Assembly (NCBI GenBank): GCA_000091165.1
Contig: FP565575.1
Location: 1,440,001-1,472,000, forward strand
Direction of reading: 5' to 3'
DNA: 32,000 nucleotides
From: Candidatus Methylomirabilis oxygeniifera
GTDB lineage: Bacteria; Methylomirabilota; Methylomirabilia; Methylomirabilales; Methylomirabilaceae
This document shows positions 4,603-32,000 of the stretch, one piece after another (position 1 is the first letter of the stretch; each line of letters starts with the position of its first letter). Below the pieces are notes generated by a model that worked only from the letters and a program-made list of their open reading frames with translations, was not told where the DNA came from and did not search any database. A program made the position numbers and the translations under genes.

Positions 4603-4655
4603 CGAATCTCACAGCGGCGTGTGGACGCGCGTTGAAGCAAGTGAGGAGGACAGAG

Positions 4656-6224: not shown

Positions 6225-6812
6225 ATGCGAAAAACGGTAGTGATCATCGACGATAGCCCTAGATCGCGGGGACCATTGGGCAATGTACTCACACGGCTTG
6301 GGTTCGAGGTGGTCGCAGAGGGAGCAAACGGAGCTGAAGCTCAACGCCTCGCCCAAATGCTGAAACCTGATGTGCTATTTCTGGCGGTGAGTCTCCCGGA
6401 TATGGATGGCCTGACAGTGGCTGCTCATATCCTGGAGACCGTACCGCTTCCGATTCTGATCCTGAGCAACCACCTCGACGAGGGGTTGATCCGCCGAGCC
6501 AAGAAGGTCGGAGTGATGGCGCACCTGCTGAAACCGCTGCGTGAGGAGGAGTTGCTGCCGGCTATCGAACTGGCGATCTCCCGGTTCGAAGAGTGCAACA
6601 CCCTCCGAAAAGAGAACGCAGACCTCAAGCGAAACCTTGAGGATCGGAAGTTGATCGAGCGCGCAAAGGGGATTCTGATGGAACGGGAACGGATCTCCGA
6701 ACAGCAGGCGTTTGCGCGGATCCAAAAAACCAGCATGAACACGCGGCGATCAATGGCCGAGATTGCGCAGGCTATCCTGCTGAGCGAAGCGGTCATCGGT
6801 AGGGCGTGTTAG
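6225..6812 (+). CDS. ANTAR-domain RNA-binding regulator with a receiver-like (pseudo-receiver) N-terminal domain
   Basis: REC-like fold (VVIIDDS..., ILILSNH, LLKP) followed by a coiled coil and an ANTAR core LEDRKLIERAKGILMERERISEQQAFARIQKTSMNTRRSMAEIAQAIL. The phospho-acceptor position reads PDVLFLAVSLPDMDG, i.e. Ala where Asp is expected. Confidence 0.85.
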   Translation: MRKTVVIIDDSPRSRGPLGNVLTRLGFEVVAEGANGAEAQRLAQMLKPDVLFLAVSLPDMDGLTVAAHILETVPLPILILSNHLDEGLIRRAKKVGVMAHLLKPLREEELLPAIELAISRFEECNTLRKENADLKRNLEDRKLIERAKGILMERERISEQQAFARIQKTSMNTRRSMAEIAQAILLSEAVIGRAC

Positions 6813-16084: not shown

Positions 16085-17647
16085 GTGTCCATTGATCCGA
16101 CGCTGGTCGCGCGCATCTCTGCGCTGACTGTGCCCCTGAACGGGACGATCGCCCCGCTCCGGCGATTCGATCCGGGTCAGGTGCTCCAGGGGCGGGTGCT
16201 TGCCGTGCGGGGCAGCCAGGTGCTGATCTCCCTTTTTGGAGAGCAGATCGCGGCCGAAAGCGTCTTGTCGCTCCGTGTCGGACAAGTCCTGGACCTGATC
16301 GTACGCGAGGCCAGACCGGATCGAATCACGTTACGGATCGCCACGGATGTCGAAGGAAAGGCGCCTGTTCTTCAACCCTTTACGGACCAGGACGTCAGCG
16401 AACTGTTGATCGGGCAACATCTGCCCACCGATCCCGCCAACATGCTGATCGTCCGCTCGCTGATCCGCAACATGCTTCCCATCACCAATGCGAACGTGTC
16501 GGCCGTTCGTCACGCGCTCTCATTTATTACGACGCCCGCAGCCGAGGATGTTGATGCCGCGCTCTTTCTCATAGCCAGGGAGTTGCCCGTCACACCGCAG
16601 AGTCTGGAGCTGGCGAAGAGCGCGCTGCTGCAACCGCACAGCCTTGGCACCCGCGTGCAGGCGCTCGCGACACAGTTGGTGGAACTATTTTCGCGGTCCG
16701 CATTCGAGGATGCGGCCGCTGAGTTGCCGCGACCCCTACTCGCTCTGGCACAACAGGTTCTACGGGATCTGCCCATGCTCTTGCCAGACCAAGCCCAGGG
16801 CCGGACGCTTACCGCACTGATTCGACAGGTGTTGGATCAGATTGCGACGCCGACGGAAGCGCGCCTCACGCACGTTCTCCAAGAACCGCGCCTCCCTCCT
16901 GCACACCCCGACCTACCCGCCGGTCGGACAGCGGCGCAGTCGCCTCATACTAAAACCGCACATACTGTCATGATCGAGCCGTCGCCCCCTTCAGACGGAT
17001 ACACGGATGTCCCGTACGCGGACGGATCACACACACCCCCGGCGCCGCTACAACGCCGCGTTCAAGAAGCAGCACATGACTTCCGCCAGCAACTTGCCCG
17101 CCTCGACGATGCACTGACTCATACCGTCGCCGACTTGCCGCGCCGTCATGAGGTTGCGTCTACGCTCCATACACTCCAGACGACGATCCGCGAACTCATC
17201 TCGGCGATAGAGGCGGATCAACTCACCAATGCCGGTGCACCTCCACCCACCGAGGCCCAGGGGTACTACCTATTCCATCTACCGATCGCCACGGTGGGGC
17301 AGGATGCGACCGACACGGCAGAGGTACGAATCTACTATCAGCGGCGAGACCGCACCAAACAGGTCGATCCCGAGAATGCACATCTGGCGTTTCTGCTGCA
17401 GATGAGCCGGCTGGGTCCGGTCGATATCCATGTGGATTTATATCAGACACATTTGCGGTGCCGGATCGAATGCTCGCGCCAGGACGCGACGAACCTGTTC
17501 CAGGGGTCGTCACATGAGCTAAAAGAGCGCCTGCAGGATATCGGCTACATCGTGGACGCGATTCGCAGCACGACCGTCCGCTCACCCGACGCGCACTCGG
17601 AGCAACCCGCGGCCTTCAATCTATTGAGGATCGACGTACAGGCATAG
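16085..17647 (+). CDS. FliK-like (flagellar hook-length control family) protein
   Basis: 520 aa. The N-terminal part has GQVLQGRVLAVRGSQVLISLFGEQIAAESVLSLRVGQVLDL, followed by a long Pro/Ala/Gln-rich linker. The C-terminal part (YYLFHLPIAT...VRIYYQRRD...AHLAFLLQMSRLGPVDIHVDLYQTHLRCRIECSRQDATNLFQGSSHELKERLQDIGY) resembles the Flg_hook domain. Confidence 0.6.
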   Translation: MSIDPTLVARISALTVPLNGTIAPLRRFDPGQVLQGRVLAVRGSQVLISLFGEQIAAESVLSLRVGQVLDLIVREARPDRITLRIATDVEGKAPVLQPFTDQDVSELLIGQHLPTDPANMLIVRSLIRNMLPITNANVSAVRHALSFITTPAAEDVDAALFLIARELPVTPQSLELAKSALLQPHSLGTRVQALATQLVELFSRSAFEDAAAELPRPLLALAQQVLRDLPMLLPDQAQGRTLTALIRQVLDQIATPTEARLTHVLQEPRLPPAHPDLPAGRTAAQSPHTKTAHTVMIEPSPPSDGYTDVPYADGSHTPPAPLQRRVQEAAHDFRQQLARLDDALTHTVADLPRRHEVASTLHTLQTTIRELISAIEADQLTNAGAPPPTEAQGYYLFHLPIATVGQDATDTAEVRIYYQRRDRTKQVDPENAHLAFLLQMSRLGPVDIHVDLYQTHLRCRIECSRQDATNLFQGSSHELKERLQDIGYIVDAIRSTTVRSPDAHSEQPAAFNLLRIDVQA

Positions 17648-18135: not shown

Positions 18136-18858
18136 TCAGATAATCTCACCGGCTCGTACAATGATGTGAGCCACCTCCGCCAGCTTGATGTTGCGATGTT
18201 GACTCTCTTGCTGCAATTTTTGCATGGCCTCCGGCTCGGAGAGCTTTAGTCGCTCCACGAGGATTCTTTTCGCCTTCTCGATCAGCTTTCGCTCCCCCAA
18301 AACTGTCTCTAACTTTTTCGTCCGTTGCTCCAGGAGATGTACCTTTGTCTTGAGTCGTGGAATGGTTTCTTCTGAGACGTGCTTCGTATTGCCTTTTGGG
18401 GTGGAGCGGAGATGGGTAGCGGAGAGAGGGGCAGCGTGTTGTTCGACACACGTCTCGGTCTCGGTGGCGTGTTTCACGAATATCTTGAAATCACAATGCT
18501 GCTGCCCCGCAGCGATTCGCCGCTTGAAGATAACTTGTCCGTAGCCAAAGAGATCAACCGCAATCCGCCCGAGACTTTCGCACCAGAGGTGACAGAAACT
18601 CTCCTGTTCCGCAACTCCTTCGCCGGCAAGGCAGTTGGTGCTGGTGAAGCGGATATGATCGCTCGCAAGCCGGTAGCGTAGATCCCAGGTCAACTGGTTC
18701 GCCAGCCAGACGACGGCCTCAGCGTATTCGGCTGGAGTAAAGACCCCTCGGTGCTTACTTCGCGCCTCCCCGGTTAAGCCGCTCAAGCTGCAGGCGACGG
18801 TGCGCAGGACTCGCTGTGTGGTTGGTAGATCGTTCTGCTTACCCAGCATCGCGGCCAA
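18136..18858 (-). CDS. Receiver-less ANTAR-domain protein, paralog 1 (Cys-containing V4R-like N-terminal domain + coiled coil + ANTAR)
   Basis: C-terminal ANTAR: GERKLIEKAKRILVERLKLSEPEAMQKLQQESQHRNIKLAEVAHIIV. N-terminal: DHIRFTSTNCLAGEG...FCHLWCESLGRIAVDLFGYGQVIF...HCDFKIFV. Homology to paralog 2 continues about 25 codons upstream of the first canonical start, so the start is uncertain. Confidence 0.8.
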   Translation of the reverse strand: MAAMLGKQNDLPTTQRVLRTVACSLSGLTGEARSKHRGVFTPAEYAEAVVWLANQLTWDLRYRLASDHIRFTSTNCLAGEGVAEQESFCHLWCESLGRIAVDLFGYGQVIFKRRIAAGQQHCDFKIFVKHATETETCVEQHAAPLSATHLRSTPKGNTKHVSEETIPRLKTKVHLLEQRTKKLETVLGERKLIEKAKRILVERLKLSEPEAMQKLQQESQHRNIKLAEVAHIIVRAGEII

Positions 18859-19594
18859 GTATCCGACAAGGTCTCGTATGATGAAACTGCGAGCTAACTC
18901 AGCGCGAGCGTCAAGCGCGGAACCGGTCGGTCTTTAGCGCTTGAACAACAGACTACTCTGTCTTAGCATGGGTCGTTCCCTTGACTTGATCTGAGTCTGG
19001 CGACCTGACGAGGGTTCGCGACATCGCGGTTGGCCGATTGACGTGTGCCTGCACGTCACCCGGCACGAATCGGGTTAAGGGGAACGCGACCATAGCCGAT
19101 AGCAAAACCGTAGGAACACTCAGGTGTTGTGGCGGTGATCGGTGTTCGGTCACTGCCAGGCGGAACGAATGACCGCCCTGCGGAGAGGCTTCGCCGACCG
19201 GATAGCCGGTGAACGAAGCGAGACCATAGATCGTCGTGCGCAAGACGCAGGACCGCACTGTCGCGGAGTCTGCTGAGCGCGGAGTCTGAATTCCTCGAGC
19301 GCTGATGGGGGCGCCATGGGGAGGGTGATGATGCCCGCACATGCCGACGTATGCCTCCGAACTCAATCACGTAGCAGTCCGGTTCCTTCTCCCCCTGAAG
19401 TCCAGCTCTTCAACGCGCGAGCATCACGCCATCCTCGTCTGGTCCGTGAGGCCATGGACCGCTTCGTCTCCGGCTTGCCACGAAGAGGCCGCTCCTCGCC
19501 AAAACACCACGAGAGATGGCCCGTCTACGGGCTGAAGTACCTCATAGGCTGCCCCACGCGACTTAACACTTTAACACCGGAGGGAGGAAGGACA

Positions 19595-21316
19595 ATGACC
19601 ATGCAATGGTTCAAGAATCTCAAGACGATGACCAAGTTGATGCTGGGATTCGCCGTAGTGGGCGTGATCGCGGGCGGAGTGGGCTACCTCGGCATCAGTA
19701 ACATGGGGAGTATCAATGCTAATGTAGGGGACGTGTACCAACACCAGCTCCTCCCCATCAAGATCATGGCCGAGGCCCGGGGGCAAACCCACCGGATGCG
19801 GGGTTTCGTGATCCAGCACATGCTGGAGCGCGACAAAGGCGCAATGGACAAGATTGCTGCCACTATCCAGGAATCCCAAGGACAGGTGGAAGAGCGGATT
19901 GGCCGCCTCGAGAAGATGGGTTTGACCCTTGAGGAGCGGGAGGCGCTGGGAACGTTCAAGGCGGCTTTCGCTGCATATAACAAGACGCGAGACGACAAGG
20001 TTCTGGCCTTCAGCAGTCAGGGCAAGAAGGAGGAGGCCTACGCCGCGGCCAAGACAGAGGGTGCGGAGCGATACCAGGCGGTCGTGGCCCGCATCAATGC
20101 CCTCATCGACCTCAAGGATAAAGCCGCCAAAGGTCGCTACGACGAAAGCCAGGCCACCTATAGCCGCTCCCGGACCATGATGATTGGGTTCGCTGTGGGG
20201 GGTCTGTTGACGGGCCTCGTATTCGGGTATTTTATTGCGATCCTGATCACCGGTCCGTTGAGCCAAACCGTGGCGGTCCTCAAGGACATCGCGGAGGGCG
20301 AGGGCGACTTGACGAAGCGACTGACAGTCCACAGTCGCGATGAGGCCGGCGAACTGGCTCGCTGGTTCAACACGTTCATGGACAAACTCCACGAGATCAT
20401 CGGGCAGGTGCGCATGGCCGCGGCGCAAAACGCCTCCACCTCACAACAACTCGCCGCCGGCAGCGAAGAACTGTCCAGTGGTACCCAGGAGCAAGCTGCC
20501 TCAATCGAGGAGACGGCGGCCTCCCTGGAGCAAATGACCTCCACTGTGAAGCAGAATGCGGACAACGCCCGCGAGGCGAACCAGATGGCGGTGTCGGCCC
20601 GATCGACGGCCGAGCAAGGCGGAGCCGTAGTCCAGACGGCTGTCACCTCGATGGAGGCGATCCGTGAGTCCTCCAAGCAGATCGCCGCGATCATCACGAC
20701 GATCGATGAAATCGCCTTTCAAACGAACCTTCTGGCGCTCAACGCCGCGGTCGAAGCCGCCAGAGCGGGGGAGCAGGGTCGGGGCTTTGCGGTGGTCGCC
20801 AGTGAGGTTCGGGCGCTTGCTCAGCGCTCGGCGGTCGCCTCCAAGGAGATCAAGACGCTGATCACTGACTCGGTAACCAAGGTGGAGGAGGGGGCGCAAC
20901 TGGTCAATCAGTCCGGGAAGACCCTGACCGAGATCATGGCCGGTGTGAAGAAGGTCGCCGATCTCATCGCCGAGATCTCCGCCGCCTCTCAGGAGCAGGC
21001 TCAAGGGATCGAGCAGATCAACAAAGCGATAACCCAGATGGACTCGGTCACTCAGCAAAATGCCGGCCAGACTGAGGAGTTCAGTGCCACAGCTCAATCC
21101 ATGGCAGCGCAGGCGGAGGAGCTCTCGGCGCTGGTGGCGAAGTTCAAGCTGGCGCGAGAGGCTGCGATCAGCCGTCAGCCGTCAGCGATCAGCTCTGAAT
21201 CGTCTCGGAAGGTGGTCCCCCTAAAAGGGAAGGCGCGTGGTAAATTCGCGGCGCCTAAGGCAGTGGCGGCGGCCACCGGGACCGATACGGCGTTTGGAAC
21301 ATTCGAGGAATTCTAG
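19595..21316 (+). CDS. Methyl-accepting chemotaxis protein (4-helix-bundle sensor, HAMP, MA signalling domain)
   Basis: ATG 19595 follows [41 protein letters not shown] (TM1), a second TM, a HAMP domain, and the highly conserved hairpin [43 protein letters not shown]. The track ORF start at 19316 adds about 90 aa of non-protein-like sequence. Confidence 0.9.
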
Positions 21317-21445: not shown

Positions 21446-24400
21446 GTGATAAAGAGACTGATGGAGGGTTCCATATTCAGGCGGTTTACCTTCCTATCCG
21501 TTCTGATCGCCTTCGTGGTTCTGATCCCTTTAGTTATTTTTGGCTTCTCGGCGATTCAGGTCGCATCGGACCAACTCCTGCAACATGAGTTGGACGAATC
21601 AAAACAGGAGGTACTAACCAATGCGGATCAACTGAAGCGCGTCTTCGACATGGCTCAGGCCGACCTCACTATGCTGCGTGAACTGACGATTCGTAAGCTG
21701 AGGCGAGTTCGAGCCGCCGGCAATGAGGCCGAGATGGCGCGCTGGTATGATGCAATAGGGCAAGCCTTCCTGACTGTTGCAGATAGCCGACGGATCTACA
21801 ACCAAATCCGCTACCTCAATGAGTACGGCCGCGAGGTGATCCGGGTGGACTATGACGGCATTCATCCTCCGCAGCTCATCCCGCCTGCGCGCTTGCAGGA
21901 TAAGCGGCAGCGCGACTACTTCTCGGAAACCATGAAACTCGCGCCGGGCCAAGTCTACGTGTCTCGGCTCGATCTCAACCAGGAGCACGGTCAGATCGAG
22001 GTCCCGTACCGTCCCGTTATCCGCTACGCCATGCCCCTCTTCGATGACGCGGGCCACCGAAGCGGGATCGTCATCGTCAACCTCCAGATGGAGCCATTGC
22101 TCGATACCCTGTACCAGAAAGGAAAAGCCGCTCAGAGGGAAGTGCGAGTCGTCGATCAGGAGGGATTTTACCTCCTACACTCTAATCCGAATAAACAGTG
22201 GGGCGGCCCACATGAACTGAACACGGGGGAACGGATCCAGCGGGACCTTCCTGACCTTGCCGGCCGGCTCCTCTCTCAACAGGCTGTCGCAAGAGTCATG
22301 GCGGAGCAGGTCGTAGCCGCCCAGCCACTCCTGCTCAGCACGAATAACGCAGGCCCGTTCATTGTGGTCGTGGAACTGATGCCCACCCATGTTGCCCTGG
22401 CACCGATTACGGATCTTCACCTCTATTTGCTGATTCTACTCGTGGGTACGAGTATCCTCGCGATAGGGTGCGCCGCATTGTTAGGGGACAAACTCACTCG
22501 GCCCATCGTCGCCTTGCAGCAGGCGGCTCATCAGATCCGACATGGTAACCTGAATACCGCAGTAGAGACTCGTGGGCCGCGTGAGATCGCGGCGCTGAGT
22601 GAGGCGTTCAATGCCATGGCGGGGGGGCTGGCCCAGGCTCAGGTTCGAATCGACCGACACCTGGCCAGATTACACGCCATCAATCAGATCTGGACGGCTG
22701 CCGGTAACCCTCTTTCGCTCCACGAGGTCATCGATCACGCTCTAGATGCGACGTTACTCTGTCTGGGCGTCGAAGCGGCTGAGATCTTTCTATTGAACGA
22801 AGAACGGACCGAGGTCGTCCTGGTCGGACACCGGGGGGCGGCCCAGGAGGCCTTCCGAGAGACTACCCATTTCAAGTTGCAGGAAGGATTCCCCGGACTG
22901 GCAACCTTCTCGGCCGAGGTCGTACTGACAACCGATCTGCCGAACGATCCACGCTTTCTCCGGAAGCAGGTCATCGAAGCCGGCTTTAAGACCTTCGCGG
23001 CGATCCCTCTGAAGGTAACCGGACAGGTGATCGGCGCCATGAACGTGGCGACCCGCACCAGTTGCACCATCATCAAAGACGACCTCCCGATTTTGACCGC
23101 CATCGGGTCCACGATCGGGATGGTCGTGGCCAACGCACGCCTTTTTGAAGCGCAGCGTGACGGCGCACAACAGCTTGCCGAGAAAGTCGAGGAGTTGGAC
23201 GGCAAGATCGATGAGTTGGAGCGGATGCAGGCTCGTCTCATCGAAGCTGAGCGGCTCCGCGCCATGGGACAGATGGCCGCCGGGGTCGCTCACGACTTCA
23301 ATAACGCGCTGATGGCGGTTCTTGGACAGGCGCAACTCATACGGCTCTTCCTTGAACGAGGGCATATAGCGGCCGTCATGCAGAACGTGGCGGAGTATGT
23401 GGAGGTGCTGGAGCGCCTCGCATGGCAGGAGCAGGCCATACTCGATGCCGCGAACATTGTGCGAAAGATCCGTGAGGCCACCCGATCGCACGGCGAGGAG
23501 CCCTTTGCCTTGGTGTCGCTGAACGAGATCGTCGAGCAGGTCCTCGAGACCACCCGGCCCCGGTGGAAGGATCAGGCTGAGGCAAAGGGACTCTCGGTCA
23601 CGATAGCGCTGCAGTTGGGCGATGTACCGCCGGTCCTCGGGAATGCAGCGGAGTTGCGGGAAGCGCTCATTAACGTCCTCTTCAACGCGCTCGACGCCAT
23701 GCCGCATGGCGGCACCATCACGATCGCCACGAGACGAGCACCGCGTACCGAAACCGGTGAGACGCTCTCGACTACCCACACCCCCCGATCGCTGTTCCAG
23801 GAACCGCCGGCCGGACGGACGTGGGTCGTACTCTCTGTTACCGACACCGGCATCGGGATGTCTCAGGACGTCAAGGCGCGGCTCTTTGAGCCGTTCTTTA
23901 CCACAAAAGGGAGCCATGGAACCGGCCTCGGGCTCAATATGGTCCAAGGCATCGTCCATCGCCACGAGGGCGAGATTCACATTACGAGCGCAGAGGGATG
24001 GGGGACCAGCATCAGCATCCATCTGCCGGCGGCGCAGGAGGATCGACCGGAACCATCCACTCCCGCCCCGCCTCCGCCGTTGCCAGGCCGGCTGCGTCTG
24101 CTCGTGATCGACGACGAACCGCTGCTTGGCGAGACCCTGGTCGACCTGTTGGGACTCCTCGGGCATGAGGCGGTCGCAGTAACCAGCGGCGAGGCGGGCA
24201 TTGCACGCCTGCAGGCCGAGCGCTTCGATCTGGTGATGACCGACATCGGGATGGCGGGAATGTCGGGGTGGGACGTCGCTCGGGCGGTCAAGGCCGATTG
24301 GTCCCAACTTCCCGTGATCCTGGTCAGCGGCTGGGCCGGTATGATGGAGCGCGACCAGATCGAGGGAGCGGGGATTGACGCAGTCCTGGCCAAGCCGTAC

Positions 24401-24487
24401 ACGATAACGCAACTCGAGCACGCCCTCAGCCGAGTTGTCGCCTCGACTCGGCGAGACGCGGGGAGCGACCCATTGGGTACGGCGTGA
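21446..24487 (+). CDS. Hybrid sensor histidine kinase 1 (TM - Cache/PDC-like extracytoplasmic domain - TM - HAMP - GAF - HisKA - HATPase_c - REC)
   Basis: H-box MAAGVAHDFNNALMAVLGQAQL. N, G1 and G2 boxes: LINVLFNALDAMPHGG, DTGIGM, GTGLGL. REC: RLLVIDDEP...DLVMTDIGMAGMSGWDV...AKP. The GAF segment is homologous to the three small GAF proteins. The sensor segment (IRYLNEYGREVIRVDYDG...YFSETMKL...VSRLDLNQEHGQIEVPYRPVIRYAMPLFD) is paralogous to kinase 2. Confidence 0.9.
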   Translation: MIKRLMEGSIFRRFTFLSVLIAFVVLIPLVIFGFSAIQVASDQLLQHELDESKQEVLTNADQLKRVFDMAQADLTMLRELTIRKLRRVRAAGNEAEMARWYDAIGQAFLTVADSRRIYNQIRYLNEYGREVIRVDYDGIHPPQLIPPARLQDKRQRDYFSETMKLAPGQVYVSRLDLNQEHGQIEVPYRPVIRYAMPLFDDAGHRSGIVIVNLQMEPLLDTLYQKGKAAQREVRVVDQEGFYLLHSNPNKQWGGPHELNTGERIQRDLPDLAGRLLSQQAVARVMAEQVVAAQPLLLSTNNAGPFIVVVELMPTHVALAPITDLHLYLLILLVGTSILAIGCAALLGDKLTRPIVALQQAAHQIRHGNLNTAVETRGPREIAALSEAFNAMAGGLAQAQVRIDRHLARLHAINQIWTAAGNPLSLHEVIDHALDATLLCLGVEAAEIFLLNEERTEVVLVGHRGAAQEAFRETTHFKLQEGFPGLATFSAEVVLTTDLPNDPRFLRKQVIEAGFKTFAAIPLKVTGQVIGAMNVATRTSCTIIKDDLPILTAIGSTIGMVVANARLFEAQRDGAQQLAEKVEELDGKIDELERMQARLIEAERLRAMGQMAAGVAHDFNNALMAVLGQAQLIRLFLERGHIAAVMQNVAEYVEVLERLAWQEQAILDAANIVRKIREATRSHGEEPFALVSLNEIVEQVLETTRPRWKDQAEAKGLSVTIALQLGDVPPVLGNAAELREALINVLFNALDAMPHGGTITIATRRAPRTETGETLSTTHTPRSLFQEPPAGRTWVVLSVTDTGIGMSQDVKARLFEPFFTTKGSHGTGLGLNMVQGIVHRHEGEIHITSAEGWGTSISIHLPAAQEDRPEPSTPAPPPPLPGRLRLLVIDDEPLLGETLVDLLGLLGHEAVAVTSGEAGIARLQAERFDLVMTDIGMAGMSGWDVARAVKADWSQLPVILVSGWAGMMERDQIEGAGIDAVLAKPYTITQLEHALSRVVASTRRDAGSDPLGTA

Positions 24488-24536: not shown

Positions 24537-25403
24537 TCACGGCTGCGCAGCCTCACGGAGGCGCCGGATCGTCCGAGTCGCGTCCGCTATCAGCCGTTCC
24601 TGCAGGCTGAGGCAACCGGATAAGTGGTCTTTCGAGAATGTGCCCCTCGCAATCGTAAGCTGCATCAGTTGTGTCTGCCCCAGAACACCCATCAACGCAT
24701 TATTTAAGTCGTGCGCAACGCCGGCCGCCAACTCGCCCATCGCCCGAAGTCGCTCGGCGGCCACCAACTGATTCTGGCTGCGCCGCAGCTCTTCCAGACT
24801 CGCCTCCAGTCGCTTGGTCGTAAGCCGGAGATCCTCGTAGATGCGGGCATTGATCACCGCCATGCCCACCGCAGCCCCGATGGCGGTGACGAGTTTCGTG
24901 TCGTCCTCCGTAAAGACGCGCATCCGCCGCGTGGCGATATCGAGCACACCGATGACCTCCCCTTTAGCCCTGAGAGGGAAGGCCGCGAAGGTCTTAAAGC
25001 CGGCCGCGACCACCTTGTACCGGAGAAAGCGCGGGTCCGCCGCCAGGTCTGGGATCACGACAACCTCCCCGGTCTGCGCCACGCGCCCGGGAATCCCTTC
25101 CCCCAGCGCGAACCGGGTGCGTTCGCCGAAGGCCTCCGGTTCCAGGCCGAGCTGTCTGGTGAGGCAGACCGCTTGTGTCGCCGTATCGAGAAGCCAGATC
25201 TCTCCGGCCTCCATACCCATAACCTTTAAGGTGGCATCGAGGGTCTGATCGAGGACATCCGGAAGCGCGAGCACACCACCAATGATCCTCCCTACCGTTC
25301 CAATGGCCTCCAGATGTCTGTTGCGGCAGGCGTATTGCTTCACCTGCTCCTCTAACACGGCGTAGATTCGAGCCTGCTCGATCGCCACCCCCTCGTCCAT
25401 CAT
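24537..25403 (-). CDS. Stand-alone GAF + DHp (HisKA) protein lacking a catalytic ATPase domain
   Basis: 288 aa. GAF core: GEGIPGRVAQTGEVVVIPDLAADPRFLRYKVVAAGFKTFAAFPLRAKGEVIGVLDIA. A coiled coil follows, then an intact H-box, AAERLRAMGELAAGVAHDLNNALMGVLGQTQLMQL. The protein ends about 45 aa later with no N, G1 or G2 boxes. Confidence 0.8.
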   Translation of the reverse strand: MMDEGVAIEQARIYAVLEEQVKQYACRNRHLEAIGTVGRIIGGVLALPDVLDQTLDATLKVMGMEAGEIWLLDTATQAVCLTRQLGLEPEAFGERTRFALGEGIPGRVAQTGEVVVIPDLAADPRFLRYKVVAAGFKTFAAFPLRAKGEVIGVLDIATRRMRVFTEDDTKLVTAIGAAVGMAVINARIYEDLRLTTKRLEASLEELRRSQNQLVAAERLRAMGELAAGVAHDLNNALMGVLGQTQLMQLTIARGTFSKDHLSGCLSLQERLIADATRTIRRLREAAQP

Positions 25404-25466: not shown

Positions 25467-28379
25467 CTATTCCGGCTCGTCATTCCGTGCATGACAAGCC
25501 TGCCCCGTACTTGATACGGGGGAATCCAGTCGGGTCCCACCGCTCCGCCGGATGATGGCGACAGCCTCGGCGAGGGCGTCCTGAAGCTGTGCCATCGTGT
25601 ATGGTTTGGCCAGCACGAGGTCCACCCCCGTCCCCTCGAGCCGGTCAGACTCCAGCGCGTCGCCCCACCCTGTGACCAGGATGACGGGACAGGTGGGCCA
25701 GCGAGCCTTGACCGCCTTGGCGACCTCCCACCCCGACATCTCCGCCATCCCAAGGTCGGTAAGAACCAGGTCGAAGCGTTCAGTCGTAAGGCGCGTGAGC
25801 CCTTCCTTGCCGCTGGTTGCGACGGTCGCCTCGTGGCCCAGGAGGCGTAGGGACACAGAGAGGGTCTCGGCAAGGAGCGGATCGTCGTCGATGACCAGCA
25901 GTGTAAGCGGGCCGGTGAGGGGGGAGCGGCGCGGCGCGTCCGGCAGCGATACCATTTCAGTGCCCCGCTCTCCGGCAGCCTCTACCTCGGCGACCGGCAC
26001 GCGTACGGTGATGGTCGTCCCCTGTCCTTCTACGCTCCGGACGCTGATCTCGCCGCCGTGGCGCTCGATAATACCGTAAACCATGCTGAGGCCGAGCCCG
26101 GTTCCGCGTACCCCCTTCGTGGTGAAGAACGGCTCGAAGAGACGAGTCTGCACGACCTGCGACATCCCGGTTCCGGTGTCGGCTACGGCAAGCTCGACCC
26201 AACCCTGTCCTTCGCGTTCCGCCTCTCGTACTCCAAATCCCCCCGCGCCCCCCTTTTGTAAAGGGGGGGTGGGGGGATTTTGCACCTCGGACTCCGTACT
26301 GCGCGCATGGATCGTGCTGACCGTAATCGTTCCGCCATTCGGCATGGCGTCGAGCGCGTTGAAAAGTAGATTGGTGAGCGCCTCGCGCAGCTCGGCGGCG
26401 TTGCCCTGGACCGGCGGGGTATCGGCCAGCGCTGTCTGCACAGCAATGTGTACCCCTGCCGCCTCGGCCTGGTCCTTCCAGCGGGGTCGGGTAATCGCGA
26501 GGACCTGCTCGACGATCCGGTTGAGAGCCACCGGCCCGAACGCCTCCGCGCCCCTTGGGCGGGTCGCTTCCCGGATCTTCCGGATCGTCTCGGCCGCGTC
26601 GAGCGCCACCTGCTCCTGTCGCGAAAGGCGCTCCAGGAGTGTTGTGTAGACCTCTACGCTCCGCAGGTCCGCCGCAACCGACCCCTGTTCGAGAGAGAGC
26701 CGCATGAGCTGCGTCTGCCCAAGAACCCCCATCAGTGCATTATTGAAATCGTGAGCTACTCCGGCGGCCATGGTTCCCATGGTAGCCAGCTTCTCCGATT
26801 CGATGAGTTGGGCTTCGCGCTTTTTTCTTTCGGTGACATCCCGGATGATGGCGGTAAAGAATTCCGATCCATGCTGTTCAGCCACCGATAGGGAGATCTC
26901 CAGCGGAAACTCCTCGCCGCTTTTCCGAAGGCCGCTAAATTCGAGACTGCGCCCGATCACGCCGGCGTCACGGATCCGGAGGTAGCGATCGAAGCCCTGG
27001 CGGCAATCCTCTTGATAGCGATCCGGCATCAGCGAGCTGACGAACTGTCCAAGCATTTCTTGCTCGCAATAGCCGAAGATCTTCTCTGCTGCGCGATTCA
27101 CGAGGGTGATTCGACCATGGCGGTCCGCGATTACGACACCGTCCTGGGCCGTCTCGATCAGACTCCGAAACCTCTGCTCCGATTCCCTGGTCTCCTGAAG
27201 CGAGGTTACCACATTGTCCGCCATGTTATTGAACGCGTCGCCAAGCGCGGCGATCTCGGCGGACCCACCGACTTTAACCCTGGCGTCCAGATGACCCTGC
27301 TGGATCCGATGGGACGCCTGCTCCAAGGCGACGATGGGACGCGCGAATCTTCGGCCTATGACGACAGCCCCTACGACCGCAACGCTCCCCACCCCGGCCA
27401 GCAGGATCAGCAGATACCAGCGAAGGGCCGCGACAGGCGCCAGGACCATGCGTGTGGGCATTAGTTCGATAATGACTAGAGAGGGATCCGAAGCGCTTGG
27501 GCCGATGGCGAACGACTGAGCGGTAATAATCTGTTCCCCCAGGATGGCCGCGACGGGGTCCCCGGCGAGGAGCCGTCCGGCAAGGTCCGGGAAGTCCTGT
27601 TGCAGGCGCCGGCCTGTGTTCAGGTCGCGGGGACTGCCCCACCGCTTGGCCGGATCGGGGTGTAACAGGTAGAACCCCTCCCGGTCGACAACATACACGA
27701 CCTTCCCGACAGCTTTGCCCTCTTGATGCAGCGCCTCGAGAAGCGGGCCTATCAGCAGGTTGATGATCACGATCCCGCGCCGGTTGCCCTCGTCGTCAAA
27801 GAGGGGCGTCGCGTAGCGGATGACGGGGCGGTACGGGACTTCGATCCGTCCATGTTCCTGGTTGAATTCCGGCTGGGAGGTGAACAGTTGCCCCGGCCCG
27901 AGCTTCATCGTCTCCGAGAAATAGTATCGCTGCCGTTGATTCTGAAGTCGGTCGCGGGGGATGATTCGTGGCGGATTCACACCGTCGTTGTCGACCCGAA
28001 CCAACTCCTGTCCGTTTTCGTCCAGGTAGCGGATCTGGTTGTATACCGTCCGATTTGCCGAGAAGGAGAGGAAGACCTGCTCCAGCGCCTTTCGCCATTG
28101 CTCGATCCCGGTCAGGTCGAGAAGAGTTCGGGCTTGGATCAACTCCCGCATCGCAGCCACGTGACTAATGATGGGCACATCGCCTTGAGCCGACTCCACA
28201 CGATGTCGGATGTGGTGGGCATCGCTCAGCACATCCTCCTTCAATTCCCCTATGGTTTTGTGCACAAGGTGGTCCGAGACAACCCGAACAACAGCGAGAC
28301 CGAACACCGCCAGGGGCGCCAGACCAACCGCGGTCAACAACACGATCAGAACGGTAGTGAAGGTGAACCGCCTAAGCAT
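25467..28379 (-). CDS. Hybrid sensor histidine kinase 2 (TM - Cache/PDC-like domain - TM - HAMP - PAS - HisKA - HATPase_c - REC)
   Basis: 970 aa. PAS: FRSLIETAQDGVVIADRHGRITLVNRAAEKIFGY...IIRDVTERK. H-box: MAAGVAHDFNNALMGVLGQTQLMRL. HATPase: LLFNALDAMPNGG, DTGTGM, GTGLGL. REC: LLVIDDDP...DLVLTDLGMAEMSGWEV...AKP. Confidence 0.9.
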   Translation of the reverse strand: MLRRFTFTTVLIVLLTAVGLAPLAVFGLAVVRVVSDHLVHKTIGELKEDVLSDAHHIRHRVESAQGDVPIISHVAAMRELIQARTLLDLTGIEQWRKALEQVFLSFSANRTVYNQIRYLDENGQELVRVDNDGVNPPRIIPRDRLQNQRQRYYFSETMKLGPGQLFTSQPEFNQEHGRIEVPYRPVIRYATPLFDDEGNRRGIVIINLLIGPLLEALHQEGKAVGKVVYVVDREGFYLLHPDPAKRWGSPRDLNTGRRLQQDFPDLAGRLLAGDPVAAILGEQIITAQSFAIGPSASDPSLVIIELMPTRMVLAPVAALRWYLLILLAGVGSVAVVGAVVIGRRFARPIVALEQASHRIQQGHLDARVKVGGSAEIAALGDAFNNMADNVVTSLQETRESEQRFRSLIETAQDGVVIADRHGRITLVNRAAEKIFGYCEQEMLGQFVSSLMPDRYQEDCRQGFDRYLRIRDAGVIGRSLEFSGLRKSGEEFPLEISLSVAEQHGSEFFTAIIRDVTERKKREAQLIESEKLATMGTMAAGVAHDFNNALMGVLGQTQLMRLSLEQGSVAADLRSVEVYTTLLERLSRQEQVALDAAETIRKIREATRPRGAEAFGPVALNRIVEQVLAITRPRWKDQAEAAGVHIAVQTALADTPPVQGNAAELREALTNLLFNALDAMPNGGTITVSTIHARSTESEVQNPPTPPLQKGGAGGFGVREAEREGQGWVELAVADTGTGMSQVVQTRLFEPFFTTKGVRGTGLGLSMVYGIIERHGGEISVRSVEGQGTTITVRVPVAEVEAAGERGTEMVSLPDAPRRSPLTGPLTLLVIDDDPLLAETLSVSLRLLGHEATVATSGKEGLTRLTTERFDLVLTDLGMAEMSGWEVAKAVKARWPTCPVILVTGWGDALESDRLEGTGVDLVLAKPYTMAQLQDALAEAVAIIRRSGGTRLDSPVSSTGQACHARNDEPE
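26235..26280. repeat. G/C-homopolymer palindromic (REP-like) element embedded in-frame in the kinase 2 ATPase domain
   Basis: AAATCCCCCC-GCG-CCCCCCTTTTGTAAAGGGGGGG-T-GGGGGGATTT. Minus-strand translation is QNPPTPPLQKGGAGGF, a peptide type typical of translated intergenic palindromic repeats. It lies in a variable loop between the N box and G1 box. Confidence 0.5.
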
Positions 28380-28452: not shown

Positions 28453-28962
28453 TCACAGCATCTCCCCGGCCTGCACAATGATCTGCGCAACCGCTGCCAG
28501 CCTGAGGTTGCGCGCCTGGCTCTCCCGCTGCAGTTTTCGCATCGCCTCGGCCTCAGATAGTCGCAGCCGCTCCATAAGGATCCCTTTCGCCTTCTCGACC
28601 AGCTTTCGCTCCTCGAGCGCCGTCTCCAGCTCCCGCGTCCGCTGTTCCAAATACCGGACCTTCGCCTGGAGCTGGCGCACCGTCGCCTCGGAGAAGCGCT
28701 CCGGTTGGCCGCCGGGCTCGGGGGCGGGGCCGCCCTGCGCCGGCCGGTCGACGGCGACGGCCCCCGTCTCGGCCTCCGCGGTGGGCTGCAGGTACAGCCG
28801 GACGTCGCAGCCCTCGCGCGCCGCCGTGTCCCGCGGCGCGACTACCACCTTGCCGTAGCCGAAGCGCTCCGCGGCTATCCGCCGGAGGCTCTCCCACCAC
28901 AGGTGGCAGAGGGGCGCCGTCTGTCCGCCCTCGTCGCGGCATATCGTACAGGTGAAGCGGAT
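28453..28962. repeat. Near-identical duplication, copy A (3-prime 510 nt of ANTAR paralog 2)
   Basis: By eye, 508/510 identical to 31491-32000 at offset 3038. Mismatches are at 28457 and 28495. Identity starts exactly at the stop codon and runs to the window edge. Confidence 0.9.
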
Positions 28963-29226
28963 ATGATCGGGCGCCACCCGGTACTGCATCGCGCCGCCCA
29001 GTTGCTGCGCCAGTCGGACGACGGCCTTGGCGTAGGTGTCCGGGGTGAGGGGTGACGGCGCGTCCTCGCACGGCGCCTCCGCCATACGCAGGAGGCGGGC
29101 GGCGGCGCGCAGGGCCTGCTGCCGTCCCTGCGAGTTGCCCCACTCGTCCAGCAGGCCCGCCGTGTGCCCGATGAAGTCGCGCACAAAACCGCTTGGGGCC
29201 GTCTCGCTGTGCCTGGGCTTGCTCAT
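28453..29226 (-). CDS. Receiver-less ANTAR-domain protein, paralog 2 (V4R-like N-terminal domain + coiled coil + ANTAR)
   Basis: ANTAR: EERKLVEKAKGILMERLRLSEAEAMRKLQRESQARNLRLAAVAQIIV. N-terminal: DHIRFTCTICRDEGGQTAPLCHLWWESLRRIAAERFGYGKVVV...GCDVRLYL. ATG 29226 is preceded by GGAAGGAGG. The track start 29259 abuts a terminator U-tract and is unlikely. It is followed 73 nt later by kinase 2. Confidence 0.8.
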   Translation of the reverse strand: MSKPRHSETAPSGFVRDFIGHTAGLLDEWGNSQGRQQALRAAARLLRMAEAPCEDAPSPLTPDTYAKAVVRLAQQLGGAMQYRVAPDHIRFTCTICRDEGGQTAPLCHLWWESLRRIAAERFGYGKVVVAPRDTAAREGCDVRLYLQPTAEAETGAVAVDRPAQGGPAPEPGGQPERFSEATVRQLQAKVRYLEQRTRELETALEERKLVEKAKGILMERLRLSEAEAMRKLQRESQARNLRLAAVAQIIVQAGEML

Positions 29227-29259
29227 CCGATTGCTCCGCCTCCTTCCGTCTGCGCCCAT

Positions 29260-29295
29260 AAAAAAAGCCTTTCATCGATATGCCGATGAAAGGCT
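29260..29295 (-). terminator. Intrinsic terminator-like hairpin (element A), immediately 5-prime of ANTAR paralog 2
   Basis: Minus strand: AGCCUUUCAUCG-GCAUAU-CGAUGAAAGGCU followed by UUUUUUU. The stem is a perfect 12 bp with a hexaloop. Confidence 0.6.
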
Positions 29296-29563
29296 CCCTC
29301 GCCTGTTCCCGCCCGGCCCTCGTCAGCCGGATGGGAGAATCCGCGCGTCCTGACGGCCATGCCGCCCTCAGGACGTCATCAACTTACTGACCGATCAACC
29401 GCGCGATCGGTAAACTGTTCCGCCTGGCAACAACCGTGCGTGGCGCAGCGACGGACCATCCTAGATCTATATACCGACAGATTCGGGTCTCCTCTTGAGG
29501 CCCATTCCTCCGGTCAACGAATCATCACGACGTCGGAGAAGCCGTAGGCGGCTCCGATGAGAG

Positions 29564-30256
29564 TCAGTCTGCCGTCCGTGTTCGCTCCATGGCGGTCAGT
29601 TGAGCCTGGGTCTGCTCCAGTTCGCTCAGCTTTGTCTCCAGTTGTCGAGTCGCGACCTCCAATTGCTGTGTCGCGACCCTGAGTCGCTCGTACAGGTGGG
29701 CGTTGGTCACCGCCATCCCCACCACCGCCCCGATAGCGCTCAAGAGTTGCACATCGTCCTCTGTGAGAACGCGCGTCCGACGCTCGGCGACATTGAGGCA
29801 CCCGGTAACCTCCCCCTTGCCCAGCAGGGGGAAGGCCACGAAGGTCTTAAAGCCGGCCGCGACCACGCTGTGCCGGAGAAAACGAGGCTCTTCCGCCAGA
29901 TCGGGAATGACCACAGATTCCCCGGTTTCCACCACCAGCCCGGGAATCCCTTCACCAGGACCAAACCGCTGACGCTCCCAGAAGGCCTCCGAATGCAGAC
30001 CACGATGTCTGGCCAGGCGCACCTCGCCCACAGCCGGATCGAGGAGCCAGATCTCCCCGGCCTCCATCTCTGTGACCGTCAAGGTGGCATCGAGGACCCG
30101 ATCGAGGACCTCGGTGAGGGCCAACGAGCTGCTGGCGGCTTGCCCAACCCTGCTGAGGGCCTCGAGTTGGTTCGTGCGTCGTCTGTATTGCTCGACCTGC
30201 GCCTGCAACGCGGCGTCGGATCGGGCTTGCTCCGCGGAGAACGTCTCTTCCGGCAT
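29564..30256 (-). CDS. Stand-alone GAF protein with C-terminal coiled coil, truncated just before the H-box
   Basis: 230 aa. GEGIPGLVVETGESVVIPDLAEEPRFLRHSVVAAGFKTFVAFPLLGKGEVTGCLNVA. It ends ...QAQLTAMERTRTAD, where paralogs read LVAAERLRAMGELAAGVAHD. Confidence 0.75.
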   Translation of the reverse strand: MPEETFSAEQARSDAALQAQVEQYRRRTNQLEALSRVGQAASSSLALTEVLDRVLDATLTVTEMEAGEIWLLDPAVGEVRLARHRGLHSEAFWERQRFGPGEGIPGLVVETGESVVIPDLAEEPRFLRHSVVAAGFKTFVAFPLLGKGEVTGCLNVAERRTRVLTEDDVQLLSAIGAVVGMAVTNAHLYERLRVATQQLEVATRQLETKLSELEQTQAQLTAMERTRTAD

Positions 30257-30465
30257 AACTATGCTCCACTCTCTCGACGGCGGACACCGTGGTCACAGAT
30301 CCGCCTACGTGTCAGTTCCCCTATCCTGGTTGCACAATCGGTCACTCCGACCGGTATCCCCATGGATGATCCGCCCGCGTACCGACGAACATGCAAAATC
30401 AACGCCACACTGCTTCTCTCCGATCCTCATGCTTGAGAGGCCCGACAGGTAACGGCTCGTGTGTA

Positions 30466-30510
30466 TCCGGAAACACAAAAGCCTTTCATCGAAGATCCGA
30501 TGAAAGGCTT
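30466..30510 (-). terminator. Intrinsic terminator-like hairpin (element B), same stem as element A
   Basis: Minus strand: AAGCCUUUCAUCG-GAUCUU-CGAUGAAAGGCUU followed by UUGUGUUUCC. The stem is 13 bp with a hexaloop. The 12-bp core stem is identical to 29266-29295. Confidence 0.55.
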
Positions 30511-30714
30511 CATCGCCCTCTCTCACGACACCGCCATCAGCACCGTTGGCAAGAGATCCACGCCCTGAGAGTGGTATCACCCTCAGGCCTCGATTGCCTG
30601 AGAGCCGTCAACTACGAGTGTGCACAACTCGACCGCTTTGTCACCAACCTCGCGTCGAGTTGAACGACAGTATAGATGACATCGTGCGCGACTGTCAAGT
30701 TCCCGTCGCGCCGC

Positions 30715-31461
30715 CTAATTCACATTATAAGAGCTGAGCATCTGCAGCGCCCTTAACGCGTTGTGGCAGTCGCGGGCGATGCCGGTCTCCGGCTCGTCCG
30801 TCGCCCGCAGTCGCGCTGTGGCGACTAACTGATTCTGGGTGCACTGCACCTGTTCAATCTTTGCCGTAAGCTGCTCGATAGAACGCCTGAGTTCCTCGTA
30901 CAGGCAGGCGTCCGCCGCAACCATTCCCACGGCTGCTCCGATCGTGATCAGGAGGCGTAGATCTGCCTCTGTGAACGAGCGCGCCCGACACGCGGCGATA
31001 TCGAGGGAACCGATGACCTCCCCTTTGGCCCGCAGCGGGACGGCCACGAAGGTCTTGAAGCCGGCCGTGACCACGCTGCGCCGGAGAAAGCGAGGCTCTT
31101 CCGCCAGATCGGTAATGACCACGGGCTCCCCGGTCTCCACCACCAGCCCGGGAATCCCTTCACCGACGGCAAACCGCGTGCGTTCCAGGAAGGCCTCCTC
31201 GATAAGGCCGTAATGCCGCTCGACGCACACCTCTCCTCGGATCCTATCGAGCAGACAGATCTCCCCGGCCTCCATCTCCAGAATCGTCACGGTCACGTCG
31301 AGGATCCGCTCGAGAATTTGATGGATCGGCAGCGAACCGGTGATGATCTGGCCGACAATGCGAAGAGCCTCCAGGTGTCTGGTGTGGTAGAGGTGCTGTC
31401 TTACCATGGTCTCTACGTCAGCATACAACTTAGTCCCCTTCACCGTCGCCCCCTCCTCCAT
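30715..31461 (-). CDS. Stand-alone GAF protein with a degenerate, His-less DHp remnant
   Basis: GEGIPGLVVETGEPVVITDLAEEPRFLRRSVVTAGFKTFVAVPLRAKGEVIGSLDIA. The C-terminus LVATARLRATDEPETGIARDCHNALRAL aligns to the H-box with His replaced by Arg. ATG 31461 follows GGAAGGAGG, and its N-terminus MEEGATV.. matches the paralog N-termini MMDEGVA.. and MPEETFS... Confidence 0.75.
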   Translation of the reverse strand: MEEGATVKGTKLYADVETMVRQHLYHTRHLEALRIVGQIITGSLPIHQILERILDVTVTILEMEAGEICLLDRIRGEVCVERHYGLIEEAFLERTRFAVGEGIPGLVVETGEPVVITDLAEEPRFLRRSVVTAGFKTFVAVPLRAKGEVIGSLDIAACRARSFTEADLRLLITIGAAVGMVAADACLYEELRRSIEQLTAKIEQVQCTQNQLVATARLRATDEPETGIARDCHNALRALQMLSSYNVN

Positions 31462-31490: not shown

Positions 31491-32000
31491 TCACGGCATC
31501 TCCCCGGCCTGCACAATGATCTGCGCAACCGCCGCCAGCCTGAGGTTGCGCGCCTGGCTCTCCCGCTGCAGTTTTCGCATCGCCTCGGCCTCAGATAGTC
31601 GCAGCCGCTCCATAAGGATCCCTTTCGCCTTCTCGACCAGCTTTCGCTCCTCGAGCGCCGTCTCCAGCTCCCGCGTCCGCTGTTCCAAATACCGGACCTT
31701 CGCCTGGAGCTGGCGCACCGTCGCCTCGGAGAAGCGCTCCGGTTGGCCGCCGGGCTCGGGGGCGGGGCCGCCCTGCGCCGGCCGGTCGACGGCGACGGCC
31801 CCCGTCTCGGCCTCCGCGGTGGGCTGCAGGTACAGCCGGACGTCGCAGCCCTCGCGCGCCGCCGTGTCCCGCGGCGCGACTACCACCTTGCCGTAGCCGA
31901 AGCGCTCCGCGGCTATCCGCCGGAGGCTCTCCCACCACAGGTGGCAGAGGGGCGCCGTCTGTCCGCCCTCGTCGCGGCATATCGTACAGGTGAAGCGGAT
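31491..32000 (-). CDS. Receiver-less ANTAR-domain protein, paralog 3 (N-terminus beyond the window edge)
   Basis: Its translation is identical to paralog 2 except for the last residue (GEMP versus GEML). The 31491..31886 track ORF is the in-window part, and the frame stays open to position 32000. Confidence 0.8.
   Translation of the reverse strand: MRFTCTICRDEGGQTAPLCHLWWESLRRIAAERFGYGKVVVAPRDTAAREGCDVRLYLQPTAEAETGAVAVDRPAQGGPAPEPGGQPERFSEATVRQLQAKVRYLEQRTRELETALEERKLVEKAKGILMERLRLSEAEAMRKLQRESQARNLRLAAVAQIIVQAGEMP
31491..32000. repeat. Near-identical duplication, copy B
   Basis: See 28453-28962. Direct orientation, 3038 nt apart. Confidence 0.9.

Follow-up and report, generated by a model that had tools for sequence, protein, structure and literature searches.

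Probable ANTAR-controlled leader elements in a signalling locus of Candidatus Methylomirabilis oxygeniifera belong to a covarying RNA family

The stretch of DNA considered here, the window, comprises 32,000 nucleotides (nt) of Candidatus Methylomirabilis oxygeniifera, a nitrite-dependent methanotroph of an uncultured lineage (NCBI GenBank assembly GCA_000091165.1, contig FP565575.1, positions 1,440,001 to 1,472,000 of the forward strand). It contains two homologous RNA elements, A and B, which lie among signalling genes and probably act as leaders under the control of ANTAR proteins. On the minus strand, the order of genes and elements is ANTAR-1, GAF-1, element B, GAF-2, element A, ANTAR-2, a hybrid histidine kinase and GAF-3. 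ANTAR-1 is represented by its 3' part (31491..32000), which is cut by the window end and is 99% identical to the 3' end of ANTAR-2. It is followed by GAF-1 (30715..31461, 248 amino acids (aa)) and, beyond element B, by GAF-2 (29564..30256), both assigned by gene call and domain. 3' of element A lies ANTAR-2 (28453..29226), the product of which has a MetOD1-like domain at its N-terminus, followed by a coiled coil and an ANTAR domain (Pfam ANTAR, 1.9e-18), and behind it, in the same orientation and assigned by their domains, follow the kinase (dCache-HAMP-PAS-HATPase-REC, 25467..28379) and GAF-3, a GAF domain with a HisKA-like remnant and the last gene of the putative operon (24537..25403). Together with ANTAR-3 (MetOD1 + ANTAR by its domains; 18136..18858, minus strand), three MetOD1-ANTAR genes are thus found within or at the edge of the window.

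Element A (29375-29258, minus strand) and element B (30590-30468, minus strand) occupy the places and share the layout that a sequence-only reading of the window had ascribed to them, as is borne out by sequence and coordinates. The 12-base-pair (bp) stem AGCCTTTCATCG/CGATGAAAGGCT, which this reading had described as identical in both, occurs exactly twice in the window (29266-29295 and 30480-30509), with 0.00 matches expected by chance from dinucleotide shuffles of the window; the terminator loops differ as it had claimed (GCAUAU in A, GAUCUU in B), and a U-tract follows both stems. From 5' to 3', element A consists of an upstream hairpin, Pa (CGUCCUGA...UCAGGACG, 29346..29375, from sequence and fold), a hairpin H1 with the hexaloop GACGAG at 29324-29319 (29308..29335), a mini-hairpin H2, AGGC[GAGGGA]GCCU, which overlaps the 5' arm of the terminator (29291..29304), and an intrinsic terminator with the exact stem, the loop GCAUAU and then U7 (29258..29297, -20.7 kcal/mol). 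H1 and H2 both fold in the nascent RNA, i.e., before the 3' arm of the terminator exists, H2 with -5.2 kcal/mol. The corresponding features of element B are Pa (CCUGAG...CUCAGG, 30562..30588, from its sequence and the covariation of Pa in the family described below), H1 with the hexaloop GAUGGC at 30538-30533 (30520..30555), H2, GGGC[GAUGAA]GCCU, the proposed antiterminator (30505..30518, from sequence and fold), the 3' strand of which, GCCU, also serves as the base of the 5' arm of the terminator, and the terminator itself (30468..30511; 15-bp stem, loop GAUCUU, tail UUUUGUGUUU, -21.3 kcal/mol), which was found by a terminator scan and by its exact stem. A covariance model of the dual hairpin, H1 and H2 (R2, see below), matches A at 29338-29287 (55.3 bits) and B at 30552-30501 (58.1 bits). 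In addition, element B has an extra CUCAGG (30602-30597) that is able to pair with CCUGAG (30587-30582); this alternative pairing, like the upstream hairpins of both elements, was found where the sequence-only reading had placed it. A further 5' hairpin of the B transcript (CAACUCGAC...GUCGAGUUG, 30625..30662, in the minimum-free-energy fold) is specific to B copies and lies outside the family consensus. Both terminators have the features of Rho-independent terminators, and the folds of both element regions are more stable than those of shuffled sequences (z = -4.2 each).

Element A ends in the leader region of ANTAR-2, 31 nt before its start codon (29226), and element B ends ~215 nt before the start codon of GAF-2 (30256), in agreement with the earlier placement. 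The pair stems from a tandem duplication (1208-1214 nt), the unit of which is a GAF gene with the element 3' of it. The cores of A and B are 70% identical, and the four-fold sites of the flanking GAF paralogs 72%, without any overall excess conservation of the elements. The two copies alone therefore prove no selection, which is demonstrated by the copies from other species.

Further copies are present in the same locus. Its counterpart in NCBI assembly GCA_009026205.1 (L001) reaches past the window end and contains two copies that lie outside the window and match the family model R1: copy D, the leader of ANTAR-1 (L001 7850-7971, plus strand, 75.5 bits), and copy C, the leader of a chemoreceptor (MCP) gene (L001 7450-7566, minus strand, 114.8 bits). 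Copy D is located 3' of a promoter, TTGACC-17-TATACT, lies with its end 24 nt from the start codon of ANTAR-1, and shows a compensatory change in its terminator (UUGC/GCGA for UUUC/GAAA). Copy C carries the same 12-bp stem on the opposite strand and ends 79 nt before the MCP gene. C and D point away from each other within an intergenic region between divergent genes, where no co-oriented gene precedes them, and neither can therefore be the 3' untranslated region (UTR) of an upstream gene. Within the window, R2 detects copy E, GCGCU[GAUGGG]GGCGC ... GGGU[GAUGAU]GCCC, at 19290..19339 on the plus strand (36.4 bits, E = 9e-7, filters off). Both of its hexaloop hairpins are part of the minimum-free-energy fold. 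Copy E is divergent from the ANTAR-3 gene, lies ~255 nt 5' of MCP-2 (19595-21316, plus strand), with the hybrid kinase HK-1 (21446-24487, plus strand) beyond, and is conserved in a related locus (L007, 17913-17962, minus strand); it is possibly a decoy, a translational control element or a leader that has lost its terminator. One locus of ~14 kb thus holds at least five copies.

Related loci were retrieved by two routes, namely as contigs with ANTAR-2 homologs and by DNA-pattern scans of genome and metagenome collections, and two Infernal covariance models were used, R1, built from 14 copies, and R2, the dual hairpin alone. R1 finds 32 full-length copies in 14 Methylomirabilota loci, with scores of 52.8-120.3 bits. 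The sequence-only reading had suggested such a search of relatives as a check for a riboregulator; in the 14 loci, the stems covary and the copies lie 5' of MCP, ANTAR, kinase or GAF genes. Matches are found in loci whose ANTAR protein is as little as 43% identical, and the 5.8 billion sequences searched contain just 20 clusters of the ANTAR partner protein family at E <= 1e-10. Two proteins of the ANTAR-2 cluster are as long as ANTAR-1 (256 aa) and the long open reading frame of ANTAR-2 (268 aa). By pattern scans, the element is rare. The exact stem, searched in 185,579 species genomes, with the Methylomirabilis reference genomes not among the scan results, returned one Methylomirabilota metagenome-assembled genome as well as chance palindromes of Mesorhizobium and Roseburia without the dual hairpin, and 3 of the 108 matches of a degenerate stem in JGI metagenomes are true relatives. 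R2 gave no match on ~590 kb of unrelated loci with a similar palindrome. Rfam yielded no match in the whole window at the gathering threshold, and at E <= 10 only chance-level microRNA, small nucleolar RNA and small RNA (sRNA) matches in 29100-30800. No description of the family was found in Rfam or by literature searches, in which a query combining ANTAR with Methylomirabilis returned only matches to the word ‘Antarctic’. That existing ANTAR-RNA models and Rfam overlook the family is a warning for annotation.

The family layout, from 5' to 3', is Pa, a linker, H1, three unpaired bases, H2, the rest of the terminator and the U-tract. Pa is a hairpin of ~9 bp with a variable loop, and the linker to H1 reads GCGG.AUC.UCCC. 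H1 is a long two-part hairpin, closed by C-G and then U.G, with the loop G-A-U-G-R-N, whereas H2 is the short R-G-G-Y[G-A-N-G-R-A]G-C-C-U; behind it, the terminator continues with the remaining 5' arm (UUCAUCG), a 6-nt loop of variable sequence and the 3' arm, and the U-tract completes the element. Across the 32 sequences, 24 of the 33 base pairs show changes on both sides (Pa 9/9, H1 10/11, terminator 4/12). Paired cells amount to 88.4%, compared to 78.1% in shuffles, and none of 500 shuffles attains the observed value in any of five measures; pairing falls to 32-52% when the 3' partner is shifted by 1-3 columns. Pairing is maintained in 88.8% of the cells of H1, in 89% of those of H2 (4-6 bp) and in 99.7% of those of the terminator, which is followed by 4-6 U among the next 7 nt. 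The alignment behind these pair counts had been fitted to the model, and plain MAFFT alignments served as an independent check: on these, RNAalifold predicts H1 with its hexaloop and, once the terminator 3' arm is removed, also H2.

The most conserved parts of the two hairpins are their loops. Position 1 is G in 28/32 H1 and 31/32 H2 loops (A in 3/32 and 1/32, respectively, the purine being kept), position 2 is A in 31/32 and 32/32, G4 is invariant in both (32/32 each), and a purine follows at position 5 in 30/32 and 32/32; H1 moreover has U3 in 27/32 copies and H2 has A6 in 24/32. The H2 loop comprises 6 nt in all 32 copies, the H1 loop 6 nt in 25 and 7 nt in 7. Closing pairs are alike as well (U.G in 28 and C-G in 4 copies of H1; U.G in 25 and C-G in 7 of H2). 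The geometry is similarly fixed, with a loop-to-loop spacing of 24-26 nt in 30/32 copies, a distance to H2 of 7 nt from the inner H1 stem (28/32) and of 3 nt from the outer H1 stem (31/32). The terminator stem begins, at its base next to the U-tract, with pairs formed by the H2 3' strand, GCC(U), and H2 and terminator are therefore mutually exclusive. Where column 108 is C, its partners in H2 (column 95) and in the terminator (column 132) are both G, in 9/9 copies. The need of the 5' arm to pair in two competing structures, i.e., with the rest of H2 and with the terminator 3' arm, explains the near-invariance of the terminator stem. 

The sequence-only reading had regarded the hexaloops of the terminators as the potential ANTAR loops and had remarked that they miss the published A1/G4 consensus. 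These loops vary without any conservation across the 32 copies, and they were discarded as candidates; the relevant hairpins, H1 and H2, had escaped that reading, and to their loops the remark applies in part, as G4 is present and A1 is not. The more general proposal, that the elements are candidate cis-acting ANTAR targets in competition with terminators upstream of signalling genes, finds support in the comparison of species, on different grounds. Two other candidates were rejected. A hairpin of GAUGAA with UUCAUC has a mismatched central pair in many copies (C.A, G.A or A.A) and is less well conserved as an antiterminator than H2. A hammerhead ribozyme, hinted at by the conserved CUGAUGA in the H1 loop together with a GAA, lacks the helix II/III arrangement as well as an Rfam match.

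All copies are located 19-257 nt 5' of a gene, and for most of them the distance from their end to a start codon with a ribosome-binding site is 19-80 nt. The genes behind them encode MCPs (9), MetOD1-ANTAR proteins (~14), hybrid kinases or GAF-kinases (4) and GAF-2 (2); copies before MCP, ANTAR and kinase genes are found in L008, L125, L127, L128, L129 and L130. The same leader also precedes a 93-aa ANTAR-only protein (L010 724-1005, plus strand) and a 460-aa GAF-GAF-ANTAR protein (L131 229-1611, plus strand), which implies that the presence of the RNA element goes with the ANTAR output domain and not with the MetOD1 sensor. The DNA pattern was the only means by which four of the loci were identified; in three of these (L010, L040 and L120), a copy is immediately followed by an ANTAR gene. 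The fourth, L018, has no recognisable ANTAR gene and is the sole locus without one behind or beside a copy; its two copies are located next to a kinase gene and near a GAF gene. Behind a full-length copy at L018 3336-3456 (minus strand, 57.5 bits), the open reading frames match no Pfam family and do not resemble ANTAR-2, and they possibly represent a frameshifted or novel gene.

Promoters of two kinds precede the elements. Element B has a sigma-70-type promoter, TTGACA-18-TATACT (30669..30698, minus strand, 11/12 consensus matches), with a predicted transcription start near 30662; the same promoter is found in L007, and the GAF-1 stop codon lies 17 nt before its -35 box. Most ANTAR-gene leaders likewise have sigma-70-like promoters with 10-11/12 consensus matches. 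Promoters of the second kind were noted at L001 7660-7700 (minus strand) and in L008, L120, L125 and L127: MCP-type leaders carry a conserved TAAG-N15-GCCGATAT in 6/9 lineages, and the kinase leaders of L008 and L127 have TAAAG-N16-GCCGATAT at the place equivalent to that of the promoter of A. There, comparison with relatives suggests a degenerate sigma-28-like promoter, CAAG-N15-GUCGGUAU (29471..29497, minus strand). The TAAG and TAAAG promoters and, in degenerate form, that of A resemble the consensus of sigma-28 (FliA), TAAA-N15-GCCGATAA, and are putatively assigned to this factor. By position and promoters, elements A and B are thus leaders. Since they are not separated by a further terminator from the GAF gene on their 5' side, they probably end read-through transcripts of that gene as well.

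ANTAR targets have been defined as two mini-hairpins of at least 3 bp with A1 and G4 in their hexaloops and a length-sensitive linker, the second hairpin (P2) overlapping the 5' base of a terminator; the 13-mer of the eut leaders reads AGC[AANGRR]GCUY, and mutagenesis showed A1 to be important for both EutV and NasR (Ramesh et al. 2012, PMC3369931). Known targets are the eutP, eutG, eutS and eutA leaders of Enterococcus faecalis for EutV, nasF of Klebsiella for NasR and amiE of Pseudomonas for AmiR (PMC3369931; PMC8934654). In the crystal structure of EutV with RNA, the flipped-out G4 makes the only base-specific contact (Walshe et al. 2022, PMC8934654). The linker between the hairpins measures 5-12 nt in eut and 2-25 nt in the definition for actinobacteria, where ANTAR RNAs have stems of at least 3 bp and hexaloops, with A1/G4 in just over 50% (Mehta and Ramesh 2021, PMC8164766). 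The present family agrees with the features of dual-hexaloop ANTAR targets in its stems, hexaloops, G4, linker, terminator overlap (with copy E as the exception) and an ANTAR protein encoded in the locus, and departs from them in A1. With the eut, nasF and amiE leaders it shares two small hairpins with similar hexaloops, the invariant G4, a short and length-constrained linker, the position of the second hairpin on the 5' base of the terminator and the ANTAR gene in the locus; loop positions 2, 5 and 6 agree with the eut consensus AANGRR. In contrast to these leaders, H1 sits on a long two-part stem and is preceded by an extra conserved hairpin, Pa, the sequence of the terminator stem is nearly invariant, and at least five copies occur within one ~14 kb locus. 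Its target genes encode chemoreceptors, kinases, GAF proteins and ANTAR proteins and are not catabolic or nitrogen genes, and the N-terminal domain of the partner proteins is MetOD1-like, where known partners have a receiver, NIT or AmiR_N domain. With the actinobacterial and mycobacterial ANTAR RNAs the family has in common dual stem-loops in a high-GC genome; unlike these, its members (except E) have the form of classical terminator/antiterminator switches, and their sequence is far more conserved. A different type of ANTAR site is that of EutX/Rli55 from the eut systems of Enterococcus and Listeria, which is reportedly an independently transcribed sRNA that sequesters EutV through a dual-hexaloop site and couples this site to an adenosylcobalamin (AdoCbl) riboswitch. 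Rfam detects no riboswitch in the present case; element B, with its own promoter and terminator, and copy E are possible analogues.

Taken together, elements A and B are most likely members of a family of 5'-leader attenuators that is specific to Methylomirabilota, is controlled by ANTAR proteins and takes part in positive autoregulation. We infer ANTAR binding, antitermination, an activating signal and autoregulation from the conserved structures and their gene context. Each leader would be transcribed from its own promoter, and A and B would probably also be reached by read-through from the GAF gene upstream. By default, the RNA would end at the strong intrinsic terminator (about -21 kcal/mol). 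H2 alone is weak (about -5 kcal/mol), and through the shared GCCU it and the terminator exclude each other. This difference in stability fits the usual ANTAR case, in which the weaker structure depends on the protein to be stabilised. Presumably, an activated dimer of a MetOD1-ANTAR protein (ANTAR-1, -2 or -3) binds the nascent hexaloops and stabilises H2, which would block the base of the terminator and allow RNA polymerase to read into the downstream gene. The genes controlled in this way would be the MCP gene, GAF-2, ANTAR-1 with GAF-1, and ANTAR-2 with the kinase and GAF-3. As this leader is also found in front of the ANTAR genes, positive autoregulation of the circuit is proposed. The family is, to judge from its sequences, a lineage-specific variant of the known ANTAR antiterminator class, with an altered loop consensus, other partner proteins and a signalling regulon. 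Most of what is known of ANTAR antitermination concerns catabolic and nitrogen operons, regulators with receiver domains and A1/G4 loops; here, the same switch design seems to be reused at least five times in one locus, including the genes of the regulators themselves. The 32 aligned leaders and the two covariance models provide a natural test set for ANTAR-RNA specificity and for cross-talk between paralogs.

Several observations weigh against ANTAR-controlled attenuation as the function of the family. The G at loop position 1 stands where known targets have A, a departure that is softened by the base-specific contact of EutV to G4 only and by the tolerance of the actinobacterial definition to variation at positions 1 and 4. 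On the side of the proteins, ANTAR-1, -2 and -3 lack a receiver domain, and alignment of their ANTAR domain, which is homologous to those of EutV, Rv1626 and NasR, places Gln, residue 237, at the Met172 ‘plug’ of EutV, Met at Tyr164 and Gln at Arg168. The H2 stem barely covaries, and in a control restricted to H2, 36/500 shuffles match the observed covariation score; the lack of variation is explained by the H2 3' strand being locked by the terminator. In element B, H1 is rich in wobble pairs, the alternative hairpin GAUGAA/UUCAUC outcompetes H2 in the nascent fold, and the distance to GAF-2 is 215 nt; copy E is without the conserved terminator. Finally, the copy counts cover the retrieved loci, and copies in other contexts are possible elsewhere in the genome.

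The sequence-only reading had offered, as a simpler alternative, that the elements are homologous 3'-UTR terminators of duplicated GAF genes, which would leave them without regulatory function and alike by descent alone. A and B indeed each lie 3' of a GAF gene with which they were duplicated in tandem, their core identity does not exceed that of the GAF four-fold sites, and B probably ends GAF-1 transcripts, as no terminator is found between the GAF-1 stop codon and B. As the sole explanation this is very unlikely, given the divergent position of C and D without a co-oriented upstream gene, the copies before MCP, ANTAR and kinase genes across the 14 loci, and the promoters of the copies, B included. 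Moreover, conservation and covariation extend over ~90 nt on the 5' side of the terminator, with two invariant-G4 hexaloops that a plain terminator would not need; as a second role of A and B, termination of GAF transcripts is probable. The 12-bp inverted repeat could also be imagined as a DNA operator of a dimeric transcription factor, with both arms conserved around a variable 6-bp spacer. However, pairing is kept via G.U wobbles, which make sense in RNA only and on one strand (pair 108-132: UA 17, CG 9, UG 5; pair 103-137: AU 19, GU 12), the U-tract is always on the strand of the downstream gene, and the repeat lies 3' of promoters and not over them, all of which makes an operator extremely improbable.

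Two further explanations accept a regulatory RNA. Some copies, above all B and E, could be stand-alone sRNA decoys that titrate ANTAR proteins, as EutX/Rli55 is said to do in the eut systems of Enterococcus and Listeria; B would yield a discrete RNA of ~195 nt, and E folds constitutively into both hexaloop hairpins. Most copies, however, have the geometry of cis-attenuators, as their ends are 19-80 nt from a start codon that has a ribosome-binding site, and B is a recent paralog of an A-type leader, so that decoys are an unlikely explanation, albeit one that is compatible with cis attenuation. Alternatively, the leaders might be sensed by a small-molecule ligand, as in a riboswitch, or by another RNA-binding protein, with the ANTAR link reflecting regulon membership. 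Such a reading would accommodate the deviating loop position 1, the differences from EutV at contact residues, and the conserved Pa and Pa-H1 linker (GCGG.AUC.UCCC), which have no role in the ANTAR model. It is nevertheless quite unlikely, because conservation is focused on two near-identical hexaloops with fixed spacing on simple stems, i.e., on a repeated protein-binding unit and not on a pocket built from junctions, because no Rfam family matches even at E <= 10, and because copies occur only in loci that encode ANTAR proteins or, in L018, with the usual GAF and kinase partners.

An extension of the proposed ANTAR-controlled attenuation is offered tentatively: the genome might use two orthogonal ANTAR codes, insulated from each other by loop position 1 and the plug residue. 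Code 1 would consist of a receiver-domain (REC-ANTAR) regulator and an A1/G4 site at 3132-3172, and code 2, which would be self-amplifying, of the MetOD1-ANTAR paralogs reading G1-A2-N-G4 hexaloops. The circuit of code 2 would then gate chemoreceptor, kinase and GAF genes driven by sigma-28 and sigma-70, with B or E maybe acting as decoys. The REC-ANTAR protein (6225-6812, plus strand) keeps the EutV-like contact motif F..SMN.R. The candidate site, GGUC[AACGGG]GACU, 15 nt, CCC[AAAGAG]GGG (3132-3172, plus strand), was found by a loose motif scan; 0.6 such matches are expected by chance in the window, its fold is no better than those of shuffles (z = 0.47), and it could be a chance match. Its second hairpin overlaps the ribosome-binding site of a BBP2 porin gene (3182-4558), which is followed on the plus strand, in the same operon, by the genes for an Amt ammonium transporter (4632-6200) and the REC-ANTAR protein.

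The proteins of the locus show some features of their own. ANTAR-1, -2 and -3 consist of an N-terminal domain of ~150 aa with the conserved cysteines Cys96, Cys107 and Cys140, a long coiled coil and the ANTAR domain. The MetOD1 match of the N-terminal domain is weak in these three and strong in L040 (1.7e-11). For the N-terminal domain of ANTAR-2, modelled by AlphaFold with a predicted local distance difference test (pLDDT) score of 73.6, a Foldseek search of the PDB gave no meaningful match (template modelling (TM) score <= 0.28). The last 300 nt of ANTAR-1 and ANTAR-2 are 99% identical (31491-31790 and 28453-28752, respectively, minus strand), as are the proteins to 95%; N-termini, leaders and downstream genes differ. 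This pattern suggests a recent duplication or gene conversion; the GAF paralogs of the locus are only 55% identical. Flagellar genes surround the locus, with a FliK-like gene at 16085-17647 and an FlhB-like gene in L007. GAF-1, -2 and -3 are stand-alone GAF proteins with a C-terminal coiled coil, and the HisKA match of GAF-3 is weak. The counterpart gene in L125, L128 and L010 encodes a full GAF-HisKA-HATPase-REC kinase. By their domain content, the stand-alone GAF proteins look like truncated sensor modules of kinases, and they may partner with kinases or with the coiled coil of the ANTAR proteins.

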